Assembly: GCA_005883765.1 (NCBI GenBank)
Contig: VBAQ01000155.1
Location: forward strand, 2,512-26,511
Reading direction: 5' to 3'
From: Bacteroidota bacterium
GTDB taxonomy: Bacteria; Bacteroidota; Bacteroidia; Chitinophagales; Chitinophagaceae
Length of the DNA: 24,000 nucleotides
The notes under the pieces are model-generated. The model was not told where the DNA came from. It did no database searches and saw nothing but the letters and a program-made list of their open reading frames with translations. This document shows, one piece after another, positions 5,712 to 20,269 of the stretch (position 1 is its first letter; each line of letters starts with the position of its first letter). The position numbers were made by a program, and so were the translations under genes.

Positions 5712-7628
5712 TCACTTGCGAATGACAAGTCTCTTGATTACATTGTTAATTTGTAACTCATACACGCCGGACTCGAACGAAGACAGGTCAACAGCGGTGC
5801 TTCCGTTACTGTTTACTATTTTTTTATGCCACCTTATGGTGCCGGATAAGTCAAACAATTTTATTTCAGTAAGAGAGGAGAAGTTACCCGTTATAAAGAC
5901 CTGCTCAGAAGCTGGATTCGGATAGAGAACAAACCGATCATTTTTTTGATTGCCATTTACCTGGCGTACTGGCGAATAAAAAAAGACATTATTTTTTTCA
6001 ATGACCCTCAGCCGGTACAAATTGATTCCTTGTTCAGGATGATCATCGGTATAGGAATAATTATTTTTCAGGCTGTCGGCCAGAGCTGAATAAAGTGGGG
6101 ACCAACTATTCGCCATGTTTTTTTCCAGTACGAATTCTTGTGCTATTTCGGGATTTGACACGGCCCATCGCAATTGAATGTTTGATTCATTGCGTGCAGC
6201 TTTAAAATAAATCAACTTCACCGCTAAAGGAATCGAAAGACAGTACGTGGCGGAATCGGTTGATTGCCGAATGACATAAGAAGAAATCGTAGTGCCATTG
6301 GAACCAGCGGCTGCCGGTATCGTGGCATTACATCCAGGATCGCGACTGTACTCCAGGCCGGCAGGTCCACCAGTGACAGAGATCGTGACGGCCGGTGCCG
6401 ACCCCGTAAAATAGATCACGCCACCGCTGCCCCCACCTCCTGCACCATAACATCTCTGCGTAGTGCCGGCATCATCTTCGTCACCTCCTTTACCACCATT
6501 TGCTTGTAGGGTCACCGAACCTGAATAACTGGTTATGTCCATGACAACCGAACCGGCCGCACCACCACCAGATGCTCCATCAGAAACGGCGGTGCCACCT
6601 GCGCCGCCATTGGCCGATATTTTATATCCGTTGCCAATTAGAGTTTCGGCCTCAATAAAAATGAGGCCTCCTCCATTGCCTCCGCCGTTCGAAATCGTGA
6701 GTGTTCCATTTGAGTGTCCAGCGCCTCCTGCACCACCAAAAAATAATTTTGTGCCGTTCCAGTTTTTTAATGCTTTGCCCCCGTCGGCGTGCAGGTCAGT
6801 CGTGCAGCCTGCACTGCTTGAATTGCCACCACCTTTTCCTCCAGCAGCTAAATTGGCACCACCTGCGCCTCCATTATTATGATTGTTGCCTCCACCCCCT
6901 CCATTCGCCGGCGCACCACGACCACCACTTTGCGCCAGGGGAAAATCATAAACGCTCTCACCTTTATACGAACCATTTTGTGGTGCGGTCGAAGAAGCAT
7001 TATAAAAATAATTCGTTGCAGCAAACGGAACATTAAAGCATGTTCCATTACTCAATAAATAACCGCCTCCCCTGAAGCCCGAAGAGTCTGCGTAGACAGG
7101 CGCATTGAGTGTCAAGTCTTGGGATACACTGATGGCGATTACACCACCGGTGCCGTTTGTGTTATTCCAGGGTGAAGCTTTTATTGTATCAATAACATTA
7201 GCCGAATAATATTCCGCGAACTTTACCAGCTGCACCTTGTCAGTAACTGTGTAACTGTTCAAAAAATTATGGAACATAAAAACTGAATCACCATTGATAG
7301 AACATATGATAGCCCGCTCATAGTTGCCGGCATTGTTAAGAGAAGTTGTATCCCCAAAACTGCTGTTATTGGTGGTGATGACTGAGGCGCCCTTCATTTG
7401 TATGAGTAACGTTTTTTGCAGTCGAGCCAGACCCGCGACGGTGTTTAATCTTACACACGCTTTTGCAGGAATAACTTCAACCACTTTGTAGTAGCTGTTT
7501 ACAACACCACTAATATTAGTTTGGGCAGAAGCGAAGAAAAAGCCAAAGACCATTACCTGTAATAAAAAAAGGTAGCAGACTTTCTGGAATAGAAAAGGCA
7601 GGACAGTGGCTGGTCTCACAGGAATCAT
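5712..7628 (-). CDS. Secreted glycine-rich protein with T9SS (Por) C-terminal sorting domain; function unknown
   Basis: 638 aa. Signal peptide ..FGFFFASAQT. The central ~200 aa is Gly/Asn/Ala-rich (GGGGGNNHNNGGAGGANLAAGGKGGG..). The C-terminal ~80 aa (LYPNPASEQVFI..LFDLSGT..GVYELQI..) matches the T9SS type-A CTD pattern. Confidence 0.75.
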   Translation of the reverse strand: MIPVRPATVLPFLFQKVCYLFLLQVMVFGFFFASAQTNISGVVNSYYKVVEVIPAKACVRLNTVAGLARLQKTLLIQMKGASVITTNNSSFGDTTSLNNAGNYERAIICSINGDSVFMFHNFLNSYTVTDKVQLVKFAEYYSANVIDTIKASPWNNTNGTGGVIAISVSQDLTLNAPVYADSSGFRGGGYLLSNGTCFNVPFAATNYFYNASSTAPQNGSYKGESVYDFPLAQSGGRGAPANGGGGGNNHNNGGAGGANLAAGGKGGGNSSSAGCTTDLHADGGKALKNWNGTKLFFGGAGGAGHSNGTLTISNGGGNGGGLIFIEAETLIGNGYKISANGGAGGTAVSDGASGGGAAGSVVMDITSYSGSVTLQANGGKGGDEDDAGTTQRCYGAGGGGSGGVIYFTGSAPAVTISVTGGPAGLEYSRDPGCNATIPAAAGSNGTTISSYVIRQSTDSATYCLSIPLAVKLIYFKAARNESNIQLRWAVSNPEIAQEFVLEKNMANSWSPLYSALADSLKNNYSYTDDHPEQGINLYRLRVIEKNNVFFYSPVRQVNGNQKNDRFVLYPNPASEQVFITGNFSSLTEIKLFDLSGTIRWHKKIVNSNGSTAVDLSSFESGVYELQINNVIKRLVIRK

Positions 7629-7791: not shown

Positions 7792-8157
7792 TCAAACGCA
7801 TACCTGAGCATGGTGTGTGGCATCGTTGTCAACAAACCATTTGTGGTTCGCCTGGTTTTGCTTTTGTAGTAAAATGGGTTTGATATTGAATCCTTTTTGA
7901 TAATCGACCAAATAGTCAACCACCTGCTGGCGACTCGGGTAACGCGGTACGTTGCTATCAAATTTTTTATAGGGCAAATTTGACAAACCCTTGTTGGTAT
8001 GCAAATGAAGGCGGTCGTAATGATTACGCCAGGGCGTAGCTACCTGGTCTTCTTTGTCAATGATAAGATATTCGATGTTCTTTTTTTGCAAAGTCGAAGC
8101 ACAAGCCAGGCCCGAGACGCTTGCTCCGATAATGAGAGTATTTGTTTCTTTCATCAT
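7792..8157 (-). pseudogene. Truncated N-terminal fragment of an FAD/NAD(P)-binding flavin monooxygenase-like oxidoreductase
   Basis: The 121-aa ORF starts with a dinucleotide-binding fold (LIIGASVSGLACA..IIDKE) followed by WRNHYDRLHLHT. That is typical of the first third of ~350-450-aa FMO/CzcO-like enzymes. It stops after ..HKWFVDNDATHHAQVCV, and no second nucleotide-binding motif follows. Confidence 0.45.
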
Positions 8158-8166
8158 GAAGCACGA

Positions 8167-10275
8167 TCAAGTTTTCAAATGATATCCCTTTGGTTTTGTA
8201 AAGGCACGCAGACCTGCATGTGAAAGTGTAACACCAAAACCAGAATGTTTTCTTCCGCTCCACGGCAAAGCTGCGCTCACACGATCGCAGCAATTCCAGT
8301 AACCCGTTCCGACGTCTATTCGGTTTAAAATATTTTCTGCCTTTGTTTTATCTGCACTATAAACCGAAGCAGTTAAACCATATTCGGTATCCTTCATTAA
8401 CTCTATTGCTTGCTCTTCATCTCTCACTTTCATAATGCCGATAACCGGACCGAATGATTCATCTTTCATCACACTCATTTCGTGGTTCACATCGACCAGG
8501 ACGGTGGGCTCAAAAAAATATCCCTGCCCGACCGCGTCATTCAGGCGGGCTTTGCTTTTTATTTTTTTTCCACCAGTCAAGATCTTTGCTCCTTTGCTCA
8601 GTGCATCTGCAACCTGGCTCTCTAAAACCCTAAGTTGTTCCTTTCTGCTCAAGGGTCCGATATAAACTCCATTTTCGGTTGGCGGCCCGATCTTCCATGA
8701 CTTCACTTCTTTTACAAATTCATTCAGGTATCGATCGTAAACTTTTTCATGCACATAGATCCTTTCGACGGCACAGCAACTCTGACCGTTGTTGTAAAAA
8801 GCTCCATCCGCAGTAGCAGCAGCAACTGCTTTTATATCCTCTATGTCATCGGCTATATACAAAGGATCTTTCCCACCTAACTCGCATTGGCAAGGGATCA
8901 TCTTTGATGCAAGTTTTTCATAAATATGTTTCCCCGTTTTGTAAGAGCCGGTAAAAAAATACCCGTCGAAGGGAATTTCTAGTAACAACTCGCCAACCCT
9001 TCCCGGCCCGACTGCAATCTGGAAAACATTATTGGGAACACCCGCCTCCTTTAAGAATTTTTCTATTTGTAATCCAGTGAGTGCAGAATGCTCGGAAGCC
9101 TTGTACATCACGGCGTTTCCAGCAAGCAAGGCTGGCACAAAAACGTTTATACCGACGAGATAAGGATAATTCCAGGCAGAGATATTGCAGACCACACCCA
9201 GCGGTTCGTAAGAGATTTTTTCTTCCATGCCATCCCCACTGCTCATGGTCTCATCGCGCAAATATTTTTCTGCGTTATCGGTCAGCCATTTTATCCTTGA
9301 CCTGCCACCTTTTATTTCATTGCGTGATTGTTGCAACGGTTTTCCTACTTCTGAGGTTAGAACCGAAGCAAGTTGTTCAATATGTGTTTCCAAAAGGTCG
9401 GAGAATTTTTTGAGCACTTGCACTCTTTCCGCAAGCGATGATTGATACCAGTCGCGCCGCGCCGATCGCAACAAGTCAAATTTTCTTTGCAGACTGTCCG
9501 CAGTGTCTTCATTTAGCTCCGCAATTACTTGTTCAGTTGCAGGGTTGGTAATCAGAAGTTTTTTCATAGTTGTTTCCCTTACAGCCGCTAGAAATTGTTT
9601 TTTTATATTTTCCGAAAACGGATTTTCTTCTTTGTCTTTCATTCTTTCAGGGTGCCATTGAATACAAAGCATGAAAGCCTTACCGGTTTTGTTTTTGAAC
9701 TCAAGACCCTCAATGATGGTTTCATCGTCATCGTCATAGGCGTTTACCAGCAGATTGTCGCCAATTGCATTGGGATCAATTGCCTGGTGATGTGCGCTGT
9801 TTACATTGCCGGAAACAGAACCTGCGATTTGATGAAGTAACGTATTTCTCCCGGTAGCAATTGAGTGTTCTTTGTCTGACTCTTCTTTCCTGTGTCTTGC
9901 ATTGCCATTGTCAAGGTCTTGTATGAGCTTTCCTCCTTCCAATACATTTATCAATTGCATTCCGCGACAAATTCCCAGGACGGGTAATTTATTTAACTGC
10001 GAATAGCGATAGATCTTTTCTTCAAAATGATCACGTTCCGGCTGCAGAGACGAGGGTTTGTTATTATAAATAGTTTTTCCGTTGTAAAAAGAGGGATGAA
10101 CATCGACACCGCCTGTAAGTACAAAGCCGCCACATTGATAGATATCCTCGATATTATTTTTTTCAAAATTGAGTTCAACCAGTTCTATATCTTTTTGCAG
10201 ATCTTCTGCAGTGAACCAGTTCCAATAATTCTGAAATGAGGTTTTTGTAAAGCTGATACCAATTCTTTTCTTCAT
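8167..10275 (-). CDS. Fusion protein: peptidase C26 gamma-glutamyl hydrolase (PuuD-like class-I amidotransferase) + NAD(P) aldehyde dehydrogenase (PuuC-like)
   Basis: Single 702-aa ORF with no internal stop. Residues 1-236 (nt 9568-10275) carry LPVLGICRGMQLIN (nucleophile Cys) and IQWHPE (His/Glu). Residues 237-702 (nt 8167-9567) carry the ALDH motifs FTGSYKTGK, CELGGKDP (catalytic Glu) and NNGQSCCAVERIYV (catalytic Cys). It starts 3 nt after the stop of the upstream alcohol dehydrogenase. Confidence 0.85.
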   Translation of the reverse strand: MKKRIGISFTKTSFQNYWNWFTAEDLQKDIELVELNFEKNNIEDIYQCGGFVLTGGVDVHPSFYNGKTIYNNKPSSLQPERDHFEEKIYRYSQLNKLPVLGICRGMQLINVLEGGKLIQDLDNGNARHRKEESDKEHSIATGRNTLLHQIAGSVSGNVNSAHHQAIDPNAIGDNLLVNAYDDDDETIIEGLEFKNKTGKAFMLCIQWHPERMKDKEENPFSENIKKQFLAAVRETTMKKLLITNPATEQVIAELNEDTADSLQRKFDLLRSARRDWYQSSLAERVQVLKKFSDLLETHIEQLASVLTSEVGKPLQQSRNEIKGGRSRIKWLTDNAEKYLRDETMSSGDGMEEKISYEPLGVVCNISAWNYPYLVGINVFVPALLAGNAVMYKASEHSALTGLQIEKFLKEAGVPNNVFQIAVGPGRVGELLLEIPFDGYFFTGSYKTGKHIYEKLASKMIPCQCELGGKDPLYIADDIEDIKAVAAATADGAFYNNGQSCCAVERIYVHEKVYDRYLNEFVKEVKSWKIGPPTENGVYIGPLSRKEQLRVLESQVADALSKGAKILTGGKKIKSKARLNDAVGQGYFFEPTVLVDVNHEMSVMKDESFGPVIGIMKVRDEEQAIELMKDTEYGLTASVYSADKTKAENILNRIDVGTGYWNCCDRVSAALPWSGRKHSGFGVTLSHAGLRAFTKPKGYHLKT

Positions 10276-10278
10276 GCG

Positions 10279-11427
10279 CTAAAGTGCTTTGCTATACAAA
10301 TTTCTGAAATCTTCGCGGCTCACTGGTTTTGGATTATTTGGATGGGCAAAATCAGCAATGGCAAGATCGGCCAGCGTTTCGATATGCTCCTGTTTTACGC
10401 CAATGTCCCGAAGTTTATGCGGTATGTTAATTTTTGAATTCAAATCAAATAGATATTTGACTACTGCTTGACCAGTCTCCTCATTCAATTCCAGCGTTCG
10501 TGCGATCCGTTTGAATTTGTCTTCGCATCCGTTGATATTAAATTCCATTCCGTACGGGATATTCACCGCATTCGCCAGTCCATGATGTGTATCCAGCAGC
10601 GATGATAAAGGATGTGCCAGTGAATGCACCACGCCCAGGCCTTTTTGAAAGGCAACCGCACCCATCAAAGATGCGATCAGCATTTTACTCCTTGACTCGA
10701 GATTGGGTTTGTTCACTGCTTTTACCAGTGATTCATTGATCAGTGAAATTCCCTCGAGGGCAATTCCTTCACATAATGGGTGAGGCATCTTTGCCAGGAA
10801 TGCTTCCATGTTATGTGTCAGAGCATCCATGCCTGTGGCTGCGGTTATAAATGCGGGAAGTTCCATTGTCAGTAACGGATCGGCAAAAACGATTTTAGCT
10901 AGCAGTTTGGGCGAAAAAAGAATTCTTTTCTGGTGTGTCCCATCGTCAGCAATAATGGCGCTGCGTCCCACTTCACTGCCGGTTCCTGCCGTAGTGGGTA
11001 TGGTAATGAAATGGGGCACGTCATTGGTCACATACACATCGCCCCCAATCAGATCATCATATTTGAAAAGGTCTTCCCTGTGATTTATTCGCAACGCGAT
11101 CGCTCTTGCGACATCCAGGGCAGCACCGCCACCAATTCCAATGATCGAGTCTCTTTGATTATTGTCGTACACATCGGTACCCTTGTACACGTCTGACTTA
11201 ACCGGGTTTTTATGGAGGTCAAAAAATATTTCTGCCGAAATGTTTTTCTTTTTCAGATCGTTGACGATGTACTTAAAAAAGTCGAGTTGGGCAATATTTG
11301 CATCGGTAACTAATAGAGGCCTTGATAAATTATTTTTTGCCAGGTAATCGCCTAATTCATTACTTGATCCGGCACCAAAGCGAATTGTCGTTGGAAAATT
11401 GTATTGATAGATCTTGTCGAATTTCAT
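10279..11427 (-). CDS. Iron-containing (group III) alcohol dehydrogenase
   Basis: 382 aa with ATG start. Fe-ADH pattern: GIGGGAALDVARA, PTTAGTGSEV, and metal-binding His contexts (MDALTHNMEA, VVHSLAHPLS..HHGLANA). Confidence 0.85.
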   Translation of the reverse strand: MKFDKIYQYNFPTTIRFGAGSSNELGDYLAKNNLSRPLLVTDANIAQLDFFKYIVNDLKKKNISAEIFFDLHKNPVKSDVYKGTDVYDNNQRDSIIGIGGGAALDVARAIALRINHREDLFKYDDLIGGDVYVTNDVPHFITIPTTAGTGSEVGRSAIIADDGTHQKRILFSPKLLAKIVFADPLLTMELPAFITAATGMDALTHNMEAFLAKMPHPLCEGIALEGISLINESLVKAVNKPNLESRSKMLIASLMGAVAFQKGLGVVHSLAHPLSSLLDTHHGLANAVNIPYGMEFNINGCEDKFKRIARTLELNEETGQAVVKYLFDLNSKINIPHKLRDIGVKQEHIETLADLAIADFAHPNNPKPVSREDFRNLYSKAL

Positions 11428-11471
11428 GATTTACGGACTGTATTATGAACCTTATTTTTCCCAGTCGCCCT

Positions 11472-12029
11472 AACCTTAGTAGAAAAATGGATACTTAGCG
11501 TCATTAGCTTATTACCTTATTTTGACCGTTTTTGGGCGGTGTAACGTATTTTGATAAAATCTCAAAAACTCCTCATACTCTTCTGCGAAACTTATTTTAC
11601 GATGATGTTCCGGCTGATTAAGTATGTATTTACAGACCCGATCAACATCTGATTTTGATACAGAAAAGGCAGATGCAGTTTCTTGCCAGGCAAATCGACT
11701 GTTGCACAGCTTATTTTGATTTATGAATTTTTGAGAACTTTCTGCAACTGTGGAGGCAAGATTTTCTTCTGATATTTTGGGAGAGCGGGATACGAGGAAG
11801 TGGACATGCTCAGGATTTGCATAAATGGCATATAATTTAGAATCATTATTATTCACTACGCCAGTAATATATTTTTCAATTCTTTCGCGATGGTTCTCTA
11901 AAATAAGAGGTAAGCGATGCAGTGTTGTAAATATAAAATGAGTATATAAATTGTTGTATTCTATTTTCATTACAAATGAGAATAAGGTAATAAGGTTGAA
12001 TCAAGGTACAATTTTTTTCTACTAAGGTT
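11472..12029 (-). mobile_element. 558-bp unit: Y1 transposase-like gene bracketed by perfect inverted repeats (REPtron/IS-like)
   Basis: The outer 16-bp perfect IR is aaccttagtagaaaaa (11472-11487) against tttttctactaaggtt (12014-12029). The inner 14-bp perfect IR is cttattaccttatt (11508-11521) against aataaggtaataag (11981-11994). Extra aaggt/acctt copies occur on both sides. No target-site duplication was seen. Confidence 0.6.
11512..11970 (-). CDS. IS200/IS605-type Y1 (HUH) transposase-like protein, RAYT-like
   Basis: 152 aa. Y1_Tnp pattern: YTHFIFTT..R.P.I, HUH motif PEHVHFLV, FAWQE..SAFSVS, and catalytic Tyr context CKYILNQPEHHRK. Confidence 0.8.
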   Translation of the reverse strand: MKIEYNNLYTHFIFTTLHRLPLILENHRERIEKYITGVVNNNDSKLYAIYANPEHVHFLVSRSPKISEENLASTVAESSQKFINQNKLCNSRFAWQETASAFSVSKSDVDRVCKYILNQPEHHRKISFAEEYEEFLRFYQNTLHRPKTVKIR

Positions 12030-12094
12030 GACCAAAAAAAATTTTAACAAAATCTCTTTTTCTAAATTAATATTGCTTGACCTAGTCGTGATCT

Positions 12095-13453
12095 CTAAAT
12101 AATCTCGAAATACCTTTTGTACTCCCAATCGGTTACAGCTTTCAGGTGCTGTCTCCATTCCCATTCTCTTGTTTGTGTGAAATGTTCAACAAATTTTTCT
12201 CCGAAAAGTTCTTTCGCAATTTTTGAAGTTTTCATTTGTCGGGTTGCTTCAATGAGTGTGGAGGGAAGAACACCATTGGAATCATCTTGGTAGCCATTTC
12301 CCGAGGTGGGCGGTTGTTTTAGCTTCAATTTATTTTTAATTCCGTACAAGCCTGAGGCCAGGCAACCTGCCATGGCGAGATAAGGATTTACATCGGAACC
12401 GATCACCCGTGTTTCGAGTCGACAAGATTTGCTGCTATTTGCGAGCACCCTCAATGCAACTGTCCTGTTATCCATTCCCCAGGTGAGTGTAGTAGGCGCC
12501 CATGCACCCTGGACCAATCTTTTATAGCTATTTATATTTGGAGCAAACAGGGGCAGTATTTCAGGCAAGCAATATAACTGGCCGGCGAGATAATTTTTTG
12601 TCAGCTCGCTCATTCTGAATTTATCCTTTTCATTATAAAAAAGATTTTTTTTTCCTGCTTTGTCCCATAAGCTTTGATGAACGTGGCCACCACAACCCGG
12701 GAGACCTTCATTGATCTTGGCCATAAAGGTTGCGATGATTCCATGCCTGTACGCAATTTCTTTCACGGCTGTTTTGAAAAGTACAGCTCTATCGGCGGCT
12801 TCTAACACATCTGAATAAGTGATGGCGGCCTCATATGTGCCGGGACCCGTTTCAGTGTGTAATCCCTCTAATGGCACATTGAATTTTTTCAGCCAGTCAA
12901 AGAGGTTGGTGAAGTAAGGATTCTCGGAAGAGCTGCGGAGAATTGAGTATCCAAACATCCCCGGAGTAAGCGGTGTAAGATTTTTGAACTGCTTATCATT
13001 AGCCGTTTGTGGAGTTTCTGCAAAATTGTACCATTCAAACTCCTGCGAGAAAAAAGGAGAGAAGCCTTGCCTGGTTGCTTCATTCATTATTTTTTTCAGC
13101 AATTGTCTTGGACAAACCTGGGAAGGATCACCTTTTTCATCTGTGAGCTCACCAAGGAAGAACGGCACATCATTTTCCCAGGGAATTTTTCTGAAAGTAT
13201 TTATATCTAACACGCCCGGGCTATCAGGATAACCGGTATGCCATCCTGTGAATTGGACATTATCATATACCACGTCGCCTGTATCCCACCCAAAAATCAC
13301 ATTGCAAAAACCTAAGCCATTTTCAATGGCGGAAGAAAATTTCTCAGCAGAAATATATTTGCCTCTCAATATCCCGTCAATATCGCTGAACGCGATCTTG
13401 ACTTTTCCGGAAGGATGGTCTTTCACATATTGGATAATTTCTTTTGTTGTCAT
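12095..13453 (-). CDS. Glutamine synthetase-family gamma-glutamyl ligase (PuuA / GlnA4 / IpuC-like)
   Basis: 452 aa with ATG start. GS catalytic-domain motifs: HTETGPGTYEA, GCGGHVHQS, NSYKRL, DNRTVALRV, CRLETRVIGSDVNPYL. Its size and divergent motifs fit the GS-like amine ligases rather than housekeeping GlnA. Confidence 0.8.
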   Translation of the reverse strand: MTTKEIIQYVKDHPSGKVKIAFSDIDGILRGKYISAEKFSSAIENGLGFCNVIFGWDTGDVVYDNVQFTGWHTGYPDSPGVLDINTFRKIPWENDVPFFLGELTDEKGDPSQVCPRQLLKKIMNEATRQGFSPFFSQEFEWYNFAETPQTANDKQFKNLTPLTPGMFGYSILRSSSENPYFTNLFDWLKKFNVPLEGLHTETGPGTYEAAITYSDVLEAADRAVLFKTAVKEIAYRHGIIATFMAKINEGLPGCGGHVHQSLWDKAGKKNLFYNEKDKFRMSELTKNYLAGQLYCLPEILPLFAPNINSYKRLVQGAWAPTTLTWGMDNRTVALRVLANSSKSCRLETRVIGSDVNPYLAMAGCLASGLYGIKNKLKLKQPPTSGNGYQDDSNGVLPSTLIEATRQMKTSKIAKELFGEKFVEHFTQTREWEWRQHLKAVTDWEYKRYFEII

Positions 13454-13533
13454 CTTGATGTTTAAAAATAAAAAGTACTAATTATTTAGATTCTTTTCCC
13501 GCAAATTTTTGATTGAACGCTGGACTCGTGATT

Positions 13534-14192
13534 AAGTCCGAAGGACTTTAACCTGCCTGCCGGGAAGCAAGTATCATTGACGGTGAGCGTAGCGCACGGG
13601 AAGTAAAGCGAAGAATGCCACAACCCCGAAGGGGTTGAATATCGGTAACCGTGAGTGTAAACTCACGCGAGGAGAAATAACGAATGGCACAATCCCGAAG
13701 GGGTTGAATATCGGTAACCGTGAGTGTAAACTCACACGAGGAGAAATAACGAATGGCACAACCCCGAGGGGGTTGAATATCGGTAACCGTGAGTGTAAAC
13801 TCACACGAGGAAAAATAACGAATGGCACAGTCCCGAAGGGGTTGAATATCGGTAACCGTGAGTGTAAACTCACAGAAGGGAAGTGAAGAATGGCACAACC
13901 CCAAAGGGGTTGAATATCGTTAACCGTGAGTGTAAACTCACGCGAGGAGAAATAACGAATGGCACAATCCCGAAGGGGTTGAATATTGGTAACCATGAGT
14001 GTAAACTCACGGAAGGGAAGTGAGGAAGGCCACAACCCCGAAGGGGTTGAATATCGTTAACCGTGAGTGTAAACTCACGCGAGGAGAAATAACGAATGGC
14101 ACAACCCCGAAGGGGTTGAATATCGGTAACCGTGAGTGTAAACTCACGGAAGGGAAGTGAGGAAGGCCACAACCCCGAAGGGGTTGAATATT
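13534..14192. repeat. Tandem array of ~10 units of a 68/69-bp double-hairpin module
   Basis: Hairpin A (aacccc-gaa-ggggtt and variants) starts at 13622, 13691, 13760, 13829, 13897, 13966, 14034, 14103 and 14171, with spacing 69,69,69,68,69,68,69,68. Hairpin B (ccgtgagt-gtaa-actcacgg) lies between successive A copies (8 copies). The linker has two forms: cgaggagaaataacgaatggcac, and ggaagggaagtgaggaaggccac. A degenerate unit at 13534-13621 has A-like aagtcc-gaa-ggactt and B-like ggtgagc-gta-gcgcac. Confidence 0.9.
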
Positions 14193-14224
14193 GCTACAAC
14201 ACAATGAACCGTTCGGGTCATGCC

Positions 14225-14278
14225 TGATTAGCCTCTGATAAGATCAGAGGCTAATCACAGTAAAGCCCTTGGGGCTTT
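14225..14278 (-). terminator. Two stem-loops just downstream of the permease stop (possible terminator / 3-prime stabiliser)
   Basis: A perfect 15-bp stem, tgattagcctctgat (14225-14239) against atcagaggctaatca (14243-14257), has a 3-nt loop. A 7-bp stem, aaagccc/gggcttt (14262-14278), sits next to it. No clear U-tract follows on the minus strand, so intrinsic-terminator function is uncertain. Confidence 0.35.
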
Positions 14279-14301
14279 CACCTCCATTCAGCTTCAAACT
14301 A

Positions 14302-15609
14302 TTATTTCGCAAATAATTTAAAAGCAATGAAGCCAATGCCAAGAATTAAAAAATAAATCACTGCCAATTTAAAATTATAAACCGTCATTGCAACAAACGA
14401 AAAAGCAGCAATGAACAATGCAGCCACCGGAAATAAAGGATACATCGGCACTTTGAAAGGACGTTCCAATTGTGGTTCTTTTTTTCTGAGCCGCAACAAG
14501 GCGATCATCGACACAATATATAACGTAAGTGCTCCAAATACCGAGATGGTAATGATCTCTGCTGTTTTACCTGTCAGCAGGGCGATGATGCCGATCACCA
14601 TATTTACCAGCAGTGCATTGGATGGTGTTTGAAATCTCGGATGAATAGTTGCTAAAAAAGGCGGGGCAAATCTTACTCTTCCAAATTCAAAAGTTGCTCT
14701 CCCTGCCGCGAGTATGATGCCATGAAAAGAAGCGATCAAGCCGAACAGCCCTATGGTTATGAGCAAATGATACATCATGTTGTCGCTACCAACGACATGA
14801 CTCAGCGCCAAAGGCAGCGGAGAATCGGAAGTACTGCCGTCAGTTTTATAAACGATGGCTTCCCATCCCGCCACGCCGACCGAGCTAATGAAAACAAGTA
14901 TGCACAAAACCACCAGTGTTGCAATGGCCGAACCGAAACCAAGCAGCATCGTTCGCTGAGGGTGAATAGCCTCTTCGGCTACATTCGCGACTCCTTCAAT
15001 GGCCAGGAAAAACCAGATAGCAAATGGAGTTGCAGCGAAGGCGCCGGCCCATCCGTGAGGAAAAGCGTTGTGTTGTAAATTTTTTAATTCAAAATGAGGA
15101 ATCGTGATGCCAGTAAACAATAGCAACTCCCCCACAGCCAGCATAGTGATGACCAATTCAAACACGGCGGCCGCTTTTACACCGTAAATATTCAACGCCG
15201 TAAAAACGACATAACTGAAAATGGCGATGGCCAATATCGGTATTTGCGGAAAAAATAAATTGAAGTAGGCGCCGATAGCAAAGGCGATGGCGGGCGGTGC
15301 AAAAATGAATTCTATATTTTGTGCCATGCCGGCAATGAATCCCCAATCTTTCCCAAGTGCCCGGTTCGCATAATCAAAACCTCCGCCGGCTTTGGGTATA
15401 GCGCAGGCCAGTTCTGTGTAGCTGAATGTGAAAGTGACGTAGAGAATAATGATAAAAAATGTGGCGATGGCGAGGCCCAATGTTCCTCCTTGTTCCAGTC
15501 CAAGATTCCAGCCGAAGTACATTCCGGAGATCACATAACCCACACCAAGGCCCCAAAGCATCAGCGGAGTGAGTGTTCTTTTTAATTCATTTGTGGGAGT
15601 TACTGACAA
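14302..15609 (-). CDS. eat: Ethanolamine permease (Eat family, APC superfamily)
   Basis: 435 aa. The N-terminus LKRTLTPLMLWGLGVGYVISGMYFGWNLGLEQGG and IPKAGGGFDYANRALG match my memory of the Eat/TIGR00908 signature. The start codon at 15607-15609 is TTG. No in-frame ATG lies upstream, and the next Met would delete the conserved N-terminus. Confidence 0.75.
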   Translation of the reverse strand: MSVTPTNELKRTLTPLMLWGLGVGYVISGMYFGWNLGLEQGGTLGLAIATFFIIILYVTFTFSYTELACAIPKAGGGFDYANRALGKDWGFIAGMAQNIEFIFAPPAIAFAIGAYFNLFFPQIPILAIAIFSYVVFTALNIYGVKAAAVFELVITMLAVGELLLFTGITIPHFELKNLQHNAFPHGWAGAFAATPFAIWFFLAIEGVANVAEEAIHPQRTMLLGFGSAIATLVVLCILVFISSVGVAGWEAIVYKTDGSTSDSPLPLALSHVVGSDNMMYHLLITIGLFGLIASFHGIILAAGRATFEFGRVRFAPPFLATIHPRFQTPSNALLVNMVIGIIALLTGKTAEIITISVFGALTLYIVSMIALLRLRKKEPQLERPFKVPMYPLFPVAALFIAAFSFVAMTVYNFKLAVIYFLILGIGFIAFKLFAK

Positions 15610-15816: not shown

Positions 15817-16866
15817 CTACTCCTTCTTCCTCTCCAAAGTAAAACCAATTGTCGTCCCTACATGCTCAGTACTTCGCACATGAATAGACTGTCCATGTGC
15901 TTCAATAATATGTTTGCAAATGGCTAAACCTAAACCCGAGCCTGTGATATCCAGGCTGCGTCCTTCCTCCGTTCTGTAAAATCGTTCAAATATTCTTGAC
16001 AAATGCCTTTCAGCCATCCCAATTCCGTCATCACTGATCTCAACCAAAACATGTTTCTCATCGGTAATATACATGCTGGCTGTAATATTGCCTCCAAACT
16101 TGCCATACTTAATCGAGTTTTCAACGAGATTCAGAATCACCTGCCTGATCTTTTCCTTATCGGCAAAAACTGTCAGCGGGGATTCGCAACCTTTTTTAAT
16201 GCTGCAACGAATATTCTTTTGCTCCGCTTTTATTGAAAGGCTTTCAAAAACTTCTTTGACCAAATCCTGGATAATAAAATTCTCTTTGTAGACGACCTGT
16301 TCGCCTCGCTCCAGCTTTGAAATTTCATCAAGATCATTCATAAGGTTTACCAGCCTGTCTATATTACGGGACGTTTTTTCTAAGAAAGGACGGTTGACTT
16401 CAGGATTTTCCAATGCACCTTGCAATAATGTATCTACATAGCCTTGTATGGCGAACACAGGGGTTTTGAACTCATGAGCCAGGTTTTGCAAAAATTCTTT
16501 CCGGAATTGCTCATTTCTTTTTAGTAACTCAATTTCTTCTACTTGTTTTTCCGCCCATTCTTCCACATCTTCTCTTACTTCATCAATACTTTTCTGTGGC
16601 AACAGGTATTGATAATATGTTTCTTCCTTTTTACTTGCTTTCGTCTGATAAATGAATTTATAGATGAGTTTGATCTTTCGATAAATAAAGCGCTCAAGAG
16701 TAAATGCGATCAGTGCATAGCTCCCAATAAAAATGATAATAAAGGATACCACGAGCACCTGCCAGCCCTCATGCAGAATATAAATTCCGATGCTGATGGG
16801 CACGGATAGCAGCAAAGCTGTAAACGCAGAAAGCTTGCGTGGAGAAATGTTCTTCGTGTTAAGCAT
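15817..16866 (-). CDS. Sensor histidine kinase (two TM helices, minimal external loop; HisKA + HATPase_c)
   Basis: H-box LAHEFKTPV, N-box NLVENSIKY, and G-boxes DDGIGM and GSGLGLAI. The ORF-track start (16968) lies inside a repeat arm. The ATG at 16864-16866 gives MLNTKNISPRKLSAFTALLLSVPISIG.., with TM helices directly at the N-terminus, so I prefer it. Confidence 0.8.
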   Translation of the reverse strand: MLNTKNISPRKLSAFTALLLSVPISIGIYILHEGWQVLVVSFIIIFIGSYALIAFTLERFIYRKIKLIYKFIYQTKASKKEETYYQYLLPQKSIDEVREDVEEWAEKQVEEIELLKRNEQFRKEFLQNLAHEFKTPVFAIQGYVDTLLQGALENPEVNRPFLEKTSRNIDRLVNLMNDLDEISKLERGEQVVYKENFIIQDLVKEVFESLSIKAEQKNIRCSIKKGCESPLTVFADKEKIRQVILNLVENSIKYGKFGGNITASMYITDEKHVLVEISDDGIGMAERHLSRIFERFYRTEEGRSLDITGSGLGLAICKHIIEAHGQSIHVRSTEHVGTTIGFTLERKKE

Positions 16867-16953
16867 GAACCCCCAAACCCCCTGAAGGGGGCTTTTGTAA
16901 ACTCCGATAAACGGAGTTGTTTTTAATAATGTTGATTGGTGAACTGGATGTTG

Positions 16954-16974
16954 AAGAGTGCGACGCAACGAAAG
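16954..16974. repeat. Right arm of the 21-bp perfect inverted repeat (partner of 15674-15694)
   Basis: aagagtgcgacgcaacgaaag. It lies in the 219-bp spacer between the response regulator stop and the kinase start. Confidence 0.85.
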
Positions 16975-17085: not shown

Positions 17086-17763
17086 TCACAACTCAAATTT
17101 ATACCCCACGCCTTTCACCGTGGTAATGCAATCAACACCCAGTTTTTGCCGGATCTTTCGGATGTGAACATCTATGGTGCGATCGCCGACGATGACATCG
17201 TTGCCCCAAACCTGGCTGAGAATTTCATTGCGCAAAAAAACACGCCCCGGTCGTGAAGCAAGTAAATGAAGAAGCTCAAATTCTTTTTTTGCAAGGAGAA
17301 TATCCTTTCCCTCCAGTTGAACTATGAATTTCTCGGGATCGATAACGAGGCCATCCACTTCGACAATTTTACTTTCTTTTGTTGGCACTCTGCGGAAAAG
17401 AGCATTTACACGACTTATAAAGACCTTCGGACTGATGGGCTTGCTCACGTAATCATCAGCACCGGTTTCAAGACCTCGTATTTGAGTGCTCTCGTCGTTT
17501 AAAGCAGTTAAAAAAATAATGAGTGTGTTTCTGAATGCAGACTGGCTTCTCAATATTTCACAAACCTGAACACCACTTTTCTTCGGCATCATGATGTCCA
17601 ACACGACCAGATCAGGCTGAAAAATTTTAGCTTTCTCAATGGCTTCGTCACCGTCTTTGGCAGTTATGACCTGGTAGCCTTCATTGAGGAGATTGTATTT
17701 CAGAATTTCAAGAATATCGGGTTCATCATCGGCAATTAAAACCTTCCTTGCCTTCGCTTCCAT
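17086..17763 (-). CDS. OmpR/PhoB-family response regulator
   Basis: 225 aa. The receiver domain has VLIADDEPDI, DLVVLDIMMPKKSG and the conserved Lys context (YVSKP). The C-terminal winged helix has KKEFELLHLL..RTIDVHIRKIRQKL..GVGYKF. Confidence 0.9.
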   Translation of the reverse strand: MEAKARKVLIADDEPDILEILKYNLLNEGYQVITAKDGDEAIEKAKIFQPDLVVLDIMMPKKSGVQVCEILRSQSAFRNTLIIFLTALNDESTQIRGLETGADDYVSKPISPKVFISRVNALFRRVPTKESKIVEVDGLVIDPEKFIVQLEGKDILLAKKEFELLHLLASRPGRVFLRNEILSQVWGNDVIVGDRTIDVHIRKIRQKLGVDCITTVKGVGYKFEL

Positions 17764-17789: not shown

Positions 17790-18029
17790 CATGAAGATTA
17801 TTTCTAAAGGAAATTGACAATTTTGCATAACACAGACTTAATAAAAACTTAACCTGTCCCTGCGAAGCTGGGTGGCTGACGCTCTTTTTTGGATCAGCTA
17901 AATTATATGAGGATCTTCTTCTTCGGTCATACCAATTGCATCGATTTGGCCTTTTGTCGCGTCAAATCATAATAAATAGTACTAATGCTCATTTAGAGAA
18001 CGAGGGCATTGTATTTGACAGAGGGATGC

Positions 18030-18037
18030 TAACTTTG
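18030..18037 (+). promoter_or_regulatory. Candidate Bacteroidota -7 promoter box (TAACTTTG) for the 739-aa protein
   Basis: TAACTTTG fits TAnnTTTG and lies 12 nt upstream of the ATG at 18050. It sits inside the N-terminal extension proposed by the ORF track, which argues for the 18050 start. Confidence 0.35.
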
Positions 18038-18049
18038 CGAACGATCCTT

Positions 18050-20269
18050 ATGATTTCAACACCCAGATACCTTGTTCTTCTCGTTTACCTGCTTGCTTTT
18101 AAACCTTTAATGGCCCAGGCGGTTGACCCTGACCCTGTCAGGGACCTGAAGCCTCCAAAGAACCGTGAGCTATTTCATGATTTTGTAGATAAGCAACAAA
18201 AAGAGATCTTAAGATCAGATGGTAAGGCCGATAATGAATTCCGGCCTTCGTCGGACGAAGAAATAAATTTTATTCTAACAAAAGCAGTCACCACGAACGT
18301 TGATTGGGTTCAGTATCGTATAGAAAAAGATACCAGTTTAAACTCGCAGGCCAAGATAAAATATCTTCGAGGCCTCGAAAACGTTCTGAAATATTTCAAC
18401 AATAACTGGCGGCGGGGAAATGTTGGTACGGCTCAACTGCCTGCGATCATTGATGAATACGAAAATTGCATGAGGGCCGATATCGCGAATGCCAGTATCG
18501 AAACCATCATCGATCACCAGCCTTATGATGTGGGAATGAATCTTATTAGCGCTGGGATCTTTGATAAAAATGCAGGATACAGGAACTCTCAATATATTTT
18601 ACTAAAAAAATATTGTGCCAGGTATCCCGATCAAACTTTCTTAAAACTCAGAAGCAACACAGATGTTTCGTTTCTTGATAGTCTTATAAAGGTGGCTGGC
18701 TACCGCGACCCGGGCCAGTTGTACAACTATGCCGCTGCCAACGACAGACTGGGAGCCGCGATCCGTAGAATTGACGATCCTCTTATCAGTGCCGTTTCAA
18801 AAATGGCAACCAGCAACAGTGGGCGCTGGTATTTTCCTTTTTTGGATAACATCATGAAAGGCAAGATGAGCATCAGTGAGATTGACGCTGTGAAGGATGA
18901 TTCACTAAAATATTACCGGCTGCTGGTGAGGACACATCTTGATTATCTGGAAAGGGCACAGAATAAAGACACCGCCTACGGCTATAAAGAACTGGAAAAA
19001 CGGATTGAAACCAAGGCGAGAGACATTTTTGTAAACACGATCAATGCCCTGCATGAGGTGGATAATCTCGCGGTACGATTTAAGATCATTCAGCCTTTAA
19101 CCGCCGAGGAACTCTACTACCTTGCCGTAACAACAGATGGCATCATATACACTTCCAGTTTCGTAAAAGGTGTTTATCCATTGATGATGACAAGGGCCAA
19201 TCAGCATGGTGATTCATTACTAATGAATGTAAAGTTTGACAGGTACCGCAAGTTCATCAAAATGTGTGCGGGCTATAATACGCTGAGCAATTTTCTGAAC
19301 ACTTTTCAGGCGAAGAAAAATAATGACACGGAAAGCGACGCGGAAAAGCTGATGAGAGCATTTGTCGGAAAGCTTGAAGAATCGGGCGGCCTTGAGGATG
19401 GCGTGGATGTGGCAGATTCTTATGCAAGTATTGCTGAAACAATCAAGCCTCTGGCAGAGAAGATGCTTTTGAATGTAAAAGCAAATTACGAAAGGAACCT
19501 TACGAGCAACAATAAACGGGGCGTGGTCATGTACAATTTGTTGTACAAGCTTTTTTTATCGGCCGACACGAATAATCATATCGATCTTTCAAAGGAATTT
19601 GGAATACCTCCTGTGTACAATGTTCCTTTTAAAGCATTATCAAATGATACCGGTCGCGTAGTGATGCAGGTTTTTTTCTATGGGGATAAGGATGGAAAAA
19701 CAATTTTCCAGGGATTTAAGAGAATGTTTGATCCCAGGCTCTGGAGGATAACCAGCACCCAAAATTGGATCGCGATAAATTCCACGAAAGGCAGACCCGT
19801 TTCTATTTACGCAAACTTGCCTTTACCCGAGGAAGATGACCAGGATAAAAATGCGCAGGATGCATTAGACACGTTTTTATTACGAAACAATCTTTACCCA
19901 ACTGTAGTGATACACAGAGGTCATAGCTATAATGCTCCGTACACGATTGCACAGATTCTTCCCTCGGCAAAAATTGTTTTTATGGGTTCATGTGGCGGCT
20001 ATTATTTGATCCATGACATATTAAAACACTCGCCCGATGCACACATCATCACTTCCAAGCAAATTGGGAAGACGACGGTGAACCAGCCATTTTTCAATCT
20101 GTTAATGGAAAAAGTACGAACCGGGAATAATATTGACTGGATTCCTTTTTGGGAAGAATTGGAGAAAAAAGTGAAAGTAGAAGGGTTTGAGGATTATATA
20201 CCTCCATACAAAAACCTCGGCGCGATTTTCATCAAGGCCTATAAAAGAGCAATGGGGGATGAGGACTAG
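18050..20269 (+). CDS. Secreted protein of unknown function (~739 aa) with possible C-terminal His/Cys dyad
   Basis: A long ORF with no family I can recognise. The start is chosen at the ATG at 18050 because it gives the signal peptide MISTPRYLVLLVYLLAFKPLMAQA. The ORF-track start at 17936 adds 38 non-hydrophobic residues. The C-terminal ~200 aa alternates predicted strand-like segments and contains TVVIHRGHSY..(~20 aa)..KIVFMGSCGGY. Confidence 0.6.
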   Translation: MISTPRYLVLLVYLLAFKPLMAQAVDPDPVRDLKPPKNRELFHDFVDKQQKEILRSDGKADNEFRPSSDEEINFILTKAVTTNVDWVQYRIEKDTSLNSQAKIKYLRGLENVLKYFNNNWRRGNVGTAQLPAIIDEYENCMRADIANASIETIIDHQPYDVGMNLISAGIFDKNAGYRNSQYILLKKYCARYPDQTFLKLRSNTDVSFLDSLIKVAGYRDPGQLYNYAAANDRLGAAIRRIDDPLISAVSKMATSNSGRWYFPFLDNIMKGKMSISEIDAVKDDSLKYYRLLVRTHLDYLERAQNKDTAYGYKELEKRIETKARDIFVNTINALHEVDNLAVRFKIIQPLTAEELYYLAVTTDGIIYTSSFVKGVYPLMMTRANQHGDSLLMNVKFDRYRKFIKMCAGYNTLSNFLNTFQAKKNNDTESDAEKLMRAFVGKLEESGGLEDGVDVADSYASIAETIKPLAEKMLLNVKANYERNLTSNNKRGVVMYNLLYKLFLSADTNNHIDLSKEFGIPPVYNVPFKALSNDTGRVVMQVFFYGDKDGKTIFQGFKRMFDPRLWRITSTQNWIAINSTKGRPVSIYANLPLPEEDDQDKNAQDALDTFLLRNNLYPTVVIHRGHSYNAPYTIAQILPSAKIVFMGSCGGYYLIHDILKHSPDAHIITSKQIGKTTVNQPFFNLLMEKVRTGNNIDWIPFWEELEKKVKVEGFEDYIPPYKNLGAIFIKAYKRAMGDED

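Follow-up and report, generated by a model that had tools for sequence, protein, structure and literature searches.

A conserved Bacteroidota gene cassette with a probable role in ethanolamine catabolism through gamma-glutamyl intermediates

In a 24,000-nucleotide stretch of a Chitinophagaceae genome (Bacteroidota bacterium, GenBank assembly GCA_005883765.1, contig VBAQ01000155.1, positions 2,512 to 26,511 of the forward strand; hereafter the window), we examined an operon that encodes an Eat-type permease, a ligase of the glutamine synthetase (GS) family, an iron-containing alcohol dehydrogenase (Fe-ADH) and a fusion of a C26-type hydrolase with an aldehyde dehydrogenase (ALDH). We consider it likely that this operon serves the catabolism of ethanolamine via gamma-glutamyl intermediates and without a B12-dependent lyase; that its substrate is a primary amino alcohol in general is held with greater confidence. 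The argument starts from what was observed directly, namely the gene content, the intact catalytic residues, the membership of the permease in the Eat family and the conservation of the cassette as a unit. From analogy with the Chromohalobacter/Phaeobacter clusters, the GlnA4 system of Streptomyces and the Puu pathway of E. coli, we infer the substrate, the order of the steps and the products.

In the proposed pathway, ethanolamine would be taken up by Eat and converted to gamma-glutamylethanolamide by the GS-like ligase, with ATP and glutamate. The free hydroxyl of this compound would then be oxidised by the Fe-ADH, giving gamma-glutamylaminoacetaldehyde, which the ALDH domain would convert to gamma-glutamylglycine. 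Hydrolysis by the C26 domain would finally yield glycine and glutamate, the latter being recycled. The presence of an alcohol dehydrogenase (ADH) together with an ALDH implies that the substrate needs a terminal primary alcohol. The original prediction, made from the sequence of the window, had put forward a gamma-glutamylation route of this kind in which an ADH replaces the PuuB oxidase. The chemistry is well supported by the conserved cassette, the residues of the ligase, the intact catalytic centres of the fusion protein and the Eat permease, with ethanolamine as the probable substrate by analogy. The series ethanolamine, gamma-glutamylethanolamide, gamma-glutamylaminoacetaldehyde, gamma-glutamylglycine, glycine plus glutamate is itself a published route (PMC6529630, PMC10132767).

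Results

Gene content of the operon

The operon lies on the minus strand and begins with eat (14302..15609; 435 aa, TTG start), which encodes an ethanolamine permease of the APC family. Next come the gene of the GS-like gamma-glutamyl-amine ligase (12095..13453; 452 aa; Pfam Gln-synt_C, 4e-98), a predicted gamma-glutamylethanolamide synthetase, and that of the Fe-ADH (10279..11427; 382 aa; Fe-ADH and ADH_Fe_C domains), a predicted gamma-glutamylethanolamide dehydrogenase. The last gene encodes the C26::ALDH fusion (8167..10275; 702 aa; Peptidase_C26 at residues 46-210 and Aldedh at residues 238-696). Residues 1-236 of this protein (9568..10275; Peptidase_C26, 1.3e-38) make up a PuuD-like domain of the class-I amidotransferase fold, predicted to hydrolyse gamma-glutamylglycine, and residues 237-702 (8167..9567; Aldedh, 1.4e-127) an ALDH domain, a predicted gamma-glutamylaminoacetaldehyde dehydrogenase.

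All four co-directional genes called in the original prediction are present with intact open reading frames (ORFs), and the stop codon of the Fe-ADH gene is separated from the start of the fusion gene by exactly 3 nt (CGC, in ...TAG CGC ATG...), as had been claimed. The account of the cluster was incomplete in that a Y1-transposase gene, a 69-bp tandem array and a truncated monooxygenase gene within its own coordinates had been missed. It had also stated that eutBC is absent, and indeed no eutB or eutC domain was found in the window's ORFs of at least 100 aa. The features that mark this type of pathway were found together: a GS-fold ligase with a non-GS amine site, an ADH plus an ALDH, a class-I hydrolase and a dedicated transporter.

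The permease belongs to the Eat family

The permease was originally described as Eat-type, and it passes the cut-off of the equivalog model TIGR00908 ('ethanolamine permease') with 440.9 bits against 381.75, over residues 7-433 of 435. It is 46-48% identical to the products of eat genes that adjoin eutBC in Thioclava, Klebsiella, Azospirillum and Clostridium butyricum. Of five Eat homologues whose surroundings were checked, four adjoin eutBC and the fifth, from Paraburkholderia, adjoins a primary-amine oxidase gene. Since Eat homologues stand beside either eutBC or an amine oxidase, Eat marks ethanolamine uptake whatever the downstream chemistry.

A link between Eat and a GS-like ligase was seen on the megaplasmid of Thermomicrobium roseum, where an operon (locus L089, 7653-11404) encodes a GS-like ligase, a short-chain dehydrogenase annotated as 'glucose 1-dehydrogenase' and Eat. 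This Eat is also a TIGR00908 equivalog (436 bits), and the accompanying ligase falls in the ethanolamine-linked clade described below. No ALDH or hydrolase gene adjoins the Thermomicrobium operon.

The cassette is conserved as a unit in Bacteroidota

A genome scan with the fusion protein as query, covering one genome per GTDB species, returned at least 600 matches, with 592 confirmed relatives; the fusion query also catches ALDH-only paralogues. Relatives are more numerous than these matches. Conservation was counted in the best 80 of the at least 600 matching loci, in which the window proteins were searched by tblastn. These 80 loci are all from Bacteroidota except one, from a metagenome-assembled genome (MAG) labelled Cyanobium.

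The order and orientation eat, GS, Fe-ADH, C26/ALDH are kept in 46 of the 80 loci, and the full cassette occurs in Chitinophagales, Cytophagales, Sphingobacteriales and a Flavobacteriales MAG, that is, in at least four orders of Bacteroidota. Its carriers include members of Chitinophagaceae, Terrimonas, Sediminibacterium, Aquirufa, Cyclobacteriaceae, Ohtaekwangia, Chryseolinea and Pedobacter as well as the Flavobacteriales MAG. The median spacers in the 46 complete loci are 46 nt between eat and GS, 43 nt between GS and ADH and 20 nt between ADH and C26. The same order in so many loci with such short spacers shows that the arrangement is not due to chance. When the ORFs in the 4 kb on each flank of the cassette were all clustered, no further gene family was common to more than six loci; the cassette is therefore a conserved unit, without a conserved regulator.

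The ligase has lost the ammonium site of glutamine synthetase

Residues of the ligase were read from its alignment to E. coli GlnA. All 11 ligands of metal, ATP and glutamate are kept (E129, E131, E212, E220, H269, H271, R321, R339, R344, E357 and R359). In contrast, Y179 is replaced by F, E327 by W, N264 by P and S53 by Q, positions that we take, from established structural work on GS, to form its ammonium site and flap. Kept ligands combined with a replaced ammonium site argue for an amine-accepting gamma-glutamyl ligase and against a glutamine synthetase. The positions of E327 and Y179 are also non-GS in PuuA, in an IpuC-annotated homologue from Paenarthrobacter aurescens TC1 (PMC1713258) and in the ethanolamine-linked ligases. 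At the E327 position, Trp is found in the ligases of the sister clade (see below), the IpuC-annotated homologue and Thermomicrobium, Phe in the other ethanolamine-linked ligases and Tyr in PuuA.

The ligase falls below all NCBIfam equivalog cut-offs, including those for GlnA (TIGR00653; 229.3 against 429.15), type III GS (221 against 470) and the PuuA type (NF045547; 214.8 against 650). A homologue search with the window ligase returned only close Bacteroidota relatives named 'glutamine synthetase' and so told nothing of function. The ligase is 43-46% identical to plasmid-borne homologues (Burkholderia and Rhizobium 45%, Legionella 43%, and also a Rhodobacteraceae strain), 40% to the IpuC-annotated homologue, 33-36% to the Chromohalobacter-type, 11zs and Streptomyces pKVP1 ligases and 30% to PuuA.

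Its best two matches in the PDB were 11zs and 5dm3. The latter is 94% identical to a Chromohalobacter cluster representative, from which its origin was deduced; the gene cluster of this type has the arrangement HTH_6/SIS and FGase-DctQ-DctM-DctP-GS-ALDH-FeADH. We had considered 11zs as a candidate GlnA4 and rejected it, since the protein comes from Brucellaceae and is encoded in a TRAP-type cluster whose gene arrangement is identical to that of the Chromohalobacter type. Clusters of this type are those described as an ethanolamine pathway (PMC10132767).

Dehydrogenases akin to those of known ethanolamine clusters, and a C26 hydrolase fused to the ALDH

The Fe-ADH shares 38% identity with its counterparts in the ethanolamine clusters of the Chromohalobacter and Brucellaceae types, and 41% with the ADH of a cassette from Legionella. 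It ranks the NCBIfam models as the known-cluster ADHs do, with NF058672 best at ~330 bits, below its cut-off. The ALDH domain shares 36-37% identity with its counterparts in known ethanolamine clusters, compared with 32% for PuuC, and its NCBIfam ranking is likewise the same as theirs (PRK09407 best, below cut-off); the PuuC model NF007352 gave 247.9 against a cut-off of 850. Both catalytic centres of the fusion protein are intact: in the ALDH domain Glu465 (ELGGKD) and Cys500 (GQSCCA) are kept, and in the C26 domain Cys103, His208 and Glu210 align with the PuuD-family triad. For the C26 domain, the counterpart encoded on Streptomyces pKVP1 shows 36% identity and PuuD of E. coli 25%.

The two domains are encoded by one ORF in 19 of the 80 loci, all from closer relatives, and by adjacent separate genes, with C26 directly upstream, in 48; in the other 13 they are unlinked or no C26 match was found. 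In about a dozen loci with unfused genes (L012, L014, L016, L020-L022, L026-L029, L040 and L059), C26 and ALDH are in the same frame with a single stop between them, which is the state expected just before the fusion seen in the window. The translations across the junction read ...AVRETTMKKL... in the fused form and ...SR*IMQV... or ...AF*VSNMKIV... in the unfused forms, and on this evidence the fusion is a simple loss of the stop codon that retained the initiator of the ALDH, Met237 in the window. Among the best 150 matches from 1.84 billion representatives at 50% identity, one (P0361) was a full-length fused protein. Another, P0393 (792 aa), is a second and more distant fusion of a class-I amidotransferase with an ALDH, suggesting that fusions of this type arose more than once. 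Judged from these comparisons, the C26::ALDH fusion arose locally as a derived state and is no defining trait of the system.

Phylogeny of the ligase and the identity of the substrate

Several points weigh against ethanolamine as the substrate or against an undisturbed operon in this strain, the first of them from the ligase tree (neighbour-joining, 100 bootstrap replicates, supports counted as bipartitions; Streptomyces was represented by the pKVP1 homologue in place of SCO1613). The Bacteroidota ligases form a clade (bootstrap 100), whose sister is the clade of proteobacterial plasmid homologues (bootstrap 100); the IpuC-annotated homologue joins these two next (bootstrap 92). The ethanolamine-linked ligases (Chromohalobacter-type, 11zs, Streptomyces pKVP1 and Thermomicrobium) form a separate clade (bootstrap 100), and a bipartition uniting them with the Bacteroidota ligases appeared in 0 of 100 replicates. 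The phylogeny that the original prediction had proposed as a check thus went the other way, placing the ligase outside the ethanolamine-linked clade and nearer to the IpuC-annotated and proteobacterial homologues. Orthology to the Csal_0679/GlnA4 clade was likewise contradicted by the identity of 33-36% and the separate clade. In the sister clade, the Rhodobacteraceae M382 ligase gene has a diamine-type context with an aminotransferase, an FGase and a spermidine/putrescine ABC transporter, and such contexts imply that specificity is labile in this part of the family. The literature searched contained no published work on a Bacteroidota version of the cassette. Lastly, a repeat-filled spacer of 848 bp and a transposase element interrupt the operon in this strain and may affect its expression.

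Because the ligase lies outside the ethanolamine clade, we infer the identity of the substrate and do not treat it as established. As homology of the ligase does not fix the substrate, the assignment to ethanolamine rests on Eat and on the logic of the ADH/ALDH pair. Tentatively, the pathway could also be the result of an independent assembly of gamma-glutamyl amino-alcohol degradation around a never-characterised clade of GS-like enzymes, perhaps for substrates other than ethanolamine, with a sub-lineage in which a bifunctional C26::ALDH protein passes gamma-glutamylglycine directly from the dehydrogenase site to the hydrolase site; we think this less likely than not.

The main competitor of ethanolamine catabolism is a pathway with the same chemistry for other or broader primary amino alcohols or amines, with ethanolamine as no more than one substrate among several; 3-aminopropanol (converted to beta-alanine), 4-aminobutanol (to gamma-aminobutyrate, GABA) and alaninol (to alanine) are candidates. 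The closer relationship of the ligase to the IpuC-annotated homologue (40%) and the proteobacterial clade (43-46%) than to the ethanolamine-linked ligases (33-36%) speaks for it. So do the varied contexts of the sister clade, which hold a GMC oxidoreductase, an aminotransferase or an Fe-ADH (the Burkholderia context is GS-ALDH-amidotransferase, and that of Rhizobium has the GMC oxidoreductase in addition), and the fact that neither the Fe-ADH nor the ALDH passes an equivalog cut-off. On the other hand, the nearest annotated relatives of the transporter, itself an Eat equivalog, are encoded in eutBC operons, and in Thermomicrobium Eat occurs beside a ligase of the ethanolamine clade. Moreover, ethanolamine, the head group of phosphatidylethanolamine, is an abundant natural amino alcohol. 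On balance we think a substrate range of this kind unlikely, though well worth keeping in mind, and continue to favour ethanolamine.

Two insertions distinguish the operon of this strain

The spacer between eat and the GS-like gene measures 848 bp in the window, against the median of 46 bp, and contains a tandem array of 69-bp units (13613..14191, minus strand; 580 bp, 8.4 copies, TRF score 899, 87% matches). The array holds eight near-exact 69-bp copies, compared with 0 in shuffled sequences. Each unit has two short GC-rich hairpins (CAACCCCTTCGGGGTTG and CGTGAGTTTACACTCACG), one with a UUCG loop, and the RNA fold of two units gave z = -2.2. No Rfam match was found for the array, nor a credible one elsewhere in the window, and the 69-bp unit was found neither elsewhere in the window nor in 91 other related loci.

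The spacer between the GS-like and Fe-ADH genes is 667 bp long, against the median of 43 bp, and is occupied by a Y1 (HUH) transposase element of ~560 bp (11472..12029, minus strand). Its co-directional gene (11970..11512) encodes a protein of 152 aa that matches Pfam Y1_Tnp with 61.5 bits (cut-off 23) and falls below the cut-offs for IS200 (NF033573, 52.1 against 55) and RAYT (NF047646, 21.1 against 80). The protein has an HVH motif at residue 55 and YxxxQ at residue 115, and the element carries perfect inverted repeats of 16 nt (11472-11487/12014-12029) and 14 nt (11508-11521/11981-11994), a layout that resembles that of REP-associated tyrosine transposases. Neither insertion belongs to the pathway, and neither breaks a pathway ORF. 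Two independent soil-metagenome contigs from the Joint Genome Institute (JGI; L093 and L094) reproduce the Y1 insertion and the array at 98-99.6% identity, which indicates that the insertions are real. The array in L094 (1-326) is shorter than that in the window, a difference due either to variation in copy number or to collapse of the repeats during assembly.

An ORF of 121 aa (7792..8157, minus strand), which sets the lower coordinate given in the original prediction, follows the fusion gene directly and corresponds to just the N-terminal third of an ArsO-like flavin monooxygenase (positions 2-115 of 346 in the model NF040505). It appears to be the remnant of a truncated gene, adjoins the cassette without being part of the pathway, and has no counterpart beside the cassette in the related loci.

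These features raise the question whether the operon is decaying in this strain, the insertions uncoupling eat and the GS-like gene from the downstream genes with poor or no expression as the outcome. Two strain-specific insertions and a truncated neighbour gene fit such a decay, and both insertions are absent from the closest relatives, L001 and L003. However, none of the four ORFs is shortened, their catalytic residues are intact, the inserted gene runs in the same direction, and the same arrangement recurs in the independent metagenome contigs. We therefore regard decay as improbable; it would in any case be compatible with ethanolamine catabolism as the function of the family as a whole.

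Polyamine catabolism or an accidental grouping of genes

The GS-like, ALDH and C26 proteins belong to the families of PuuA, PuuC and PuuD, and the operon could for that reason be taken for a Puu-type cluster for polyamine (putrescine) catabolism. Neither the cassette of the window nor those of its relatives contain a PuuB-type oxidase or an aminotransferase; an Fe-ADH is found instead. The scores for PuuA (215 against 650) and PuuC (248 against 850) are far below their cut-offs, the identities are 30% to PuuA, 32% to PuuC and 25% to PuuD, and between the permease and PuuP only a fragment aligns, at 22% identity. The putrescine reading is thus largely refuted, and we hold it to be highly improbable. 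A chance association of an ordinary glutamine synthetase, as the public annotation has it, with general redox and amidase enzymes can hardly be right, given a gene order kept across orders with spacers of tens of nt, the replacement of all four ammonium-site residues (E327, Y179, N264 and S53) and a score below the GlnA equivalog cut-off.

Other genes of the window

Upstream of eat on the same strand lie the genes of a histidine kinase (15817..16968) and an OmpR/PhoB-type response regulator (17086..17763), both identified by their domains and both below every NCBIfam equivalog cut-off. This two-component system had been proposed as a candidate regulator of the operon. Among the 46 complete loci it was found upstream of the cassette in one, L003, so synteny lends no support to a regulatory role, and we rejected the system as a conserved partner of the cassette. 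The upstream genes of the closest relative, L001, differ from it. Divergent from the two-component system is an ORF of 777 aa (17936-20269, plus strand) with no Pfam or NCBIfam match.

The flanking genes for a beta-phosphoglucomutase-family HAD hydrolase, a second APC permease, a DegT aminotransferase and a GH30 glycosidase showed no link to ethanolamine or phosphonate metabolism. A scan for sigma-70 promoters and terminators, which takes no account of the promoter type of Bacteroidota, found no more of them than in shuffled sequence. Elsewhere in the window, a gene on the minus strand (5712-7628) encodes a Gly/Asn-rich protein of 638 aa with a C-terminal sorting domain of the type IX secretion system (T9SS); it coincides with a local GC peak of 0.51, compared with ~0.42 in the rest of the window.

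Discussion

Ethanolamine is released wherever membranes are degraded, and the canonical eut route for its use needs cobalamin and often a microcompartment. If our reading of the cassette is true, a compact and B12-independent means of gaining nitrogen and glycine carbon from ethanolamine would be available to many Bacteroidota of soil and fresh water, and a pathway documented so far in Proteobacteria and Actinobacteria would reach a third major phylum. The widespread annotation of these genes as 'glutamine synthetase' would then be corrected. In addition, its position apart from the ethanolamine clade known so far makes the ligase well suited to studies of how GS-like enzymes evolve their amine specificity. 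Nothing here overturns current understanding. The pathway is not new, and on this point the original prediction is weakened: no account from Bacteroidota was found in the literature searched, but the same route and enzyme families have already been published in other phyla.

One of the closest known systems is the TRAP-type ethanolamine cluster. In Phaeobacter sp. MED193, an operon encoding RpiR, a gamma-glutamylglycine amidohydrolase, the TRAP transporter EtoVWX, an ethanolamine gamma-glutamylase and two dehydrogenases is induced on phosphoethanolamine, as detected by proteomics (PMC10132767). According to that paper, related genes had been shown to serve ethanolamine degradation in both C. 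salexigens and A. tumefaciens (Vetting et al. 2015, Biochemistry 54:909, as cited in PMC10132767 and PMC6529630). The clusters of Chromohalobacter, Agrobacterium and Phaeobacter share with the window the same proposed route and the combination of a GS-like ligase, an Fe-ADH, an ALDH and an ethanolamine transporter in one operon. In contrast, the Chromohalobacter/Phaeobacter type has the TRAP transporter where the window has the APC permease Eat, an FGase-family hydrolase where the window has C26, and RpiR as regulator where the Bacteroidota cassette has none that is conserved. The ligases of the Chromohalobacter type and the window also differ in clade, as their identity of 33-36% reflects.

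The second point of comparison is GlnA4 (SCO1613) of S. coelicolor, which has been shown genetically and in vitro to make gamma-glutamylethanolamide, the later steps of SCO1610-1615 being assigned to a short-chain dehydrogenase, an ALDH and a glutamine amidotransferase (PMC6529630). According to the legend to Fig. 2 of that paper, an APC permease accompanies the cluster in most Streptomyces. The GlnA4 cluster thus resembles the window in having a GS-like ligase alongside an ALDH and a hydrolase of the class-I amidotransferase type, mostly with an APC permease, and is B12-independent with glycine and glutamate as proposed products; its class-I amidotransferase provides a precedent for a C26-type hydrolase. 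It differs in using a short-chain dehydrogenase instead of an Fe-ADH for the alcohol oxidation and in having the EpuRI repressor, which is absent from the window. A cluster of the same make-up on the Streptomyces plasmid pKVP1, whose orthology to GlnA4 is unconfirmed, encodes a ligase that is 35% identical to that of the window and belongs to the other clade, and its permease, unlike the window's, is not a TIGR00908 Eat.

E. coli breaks down putrescine with PuuP, PuuA, PuuB, PuuC and PuuD. The Puu pathway and the window have in common the logic of gamma-glutamyl protection, oxidation to an acid and C26 hydrolysis, together with the GS-like, ALDH and C26 families. They differ in the oxidising enzyme (PuuB oxidase against Fe-ADH) and in the permease subfamily, the enzyme identities are 25-32%, and the window genes, unlike those of Puu, lie in a single operon, all in one direction and with C26 fused to ALDH. 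The Ipu pathway for isopropylamine, reportedly first described in Pseudomonas sp. KIE171, is nearer as far as the ligase is concerned (40% identity, bootstrap 92), and the Ipu locus also has a class-I amidotransferase and an ALDH. It carries a P450, a ferredoxin and a reductase for hydroxylation of the alkyl chain, whereas the window lacks these and has Eat as its permease. A cassette with the same four enzyme functions as the window is found on plasmid pLlyPCM2298_1 of Legionella lytica (L087, 6977-11624), where a GS-like ligase of the sister clade (43% identity), an ALDH, an Fe-ADH (41%) and an amidotransferase are encoded in an unfused operon. It differs in its gene order, in an unfused amidotransferase that is PRK05665-like and in having no adjoining eat.

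Taken together, these comparisons show that each part of the Bacteroidota cassette is precedented in a known cluster and that the cassette is an uncharacterised variant of a pathway type known in other phyla. It differs from the known systems in a ligase outside the known ethanolamine clade, in Eat as the transporter, in a C26 hydrolase where the TRAP-type cluster has an FGase and, locally, in the C26::ALDH fusion.

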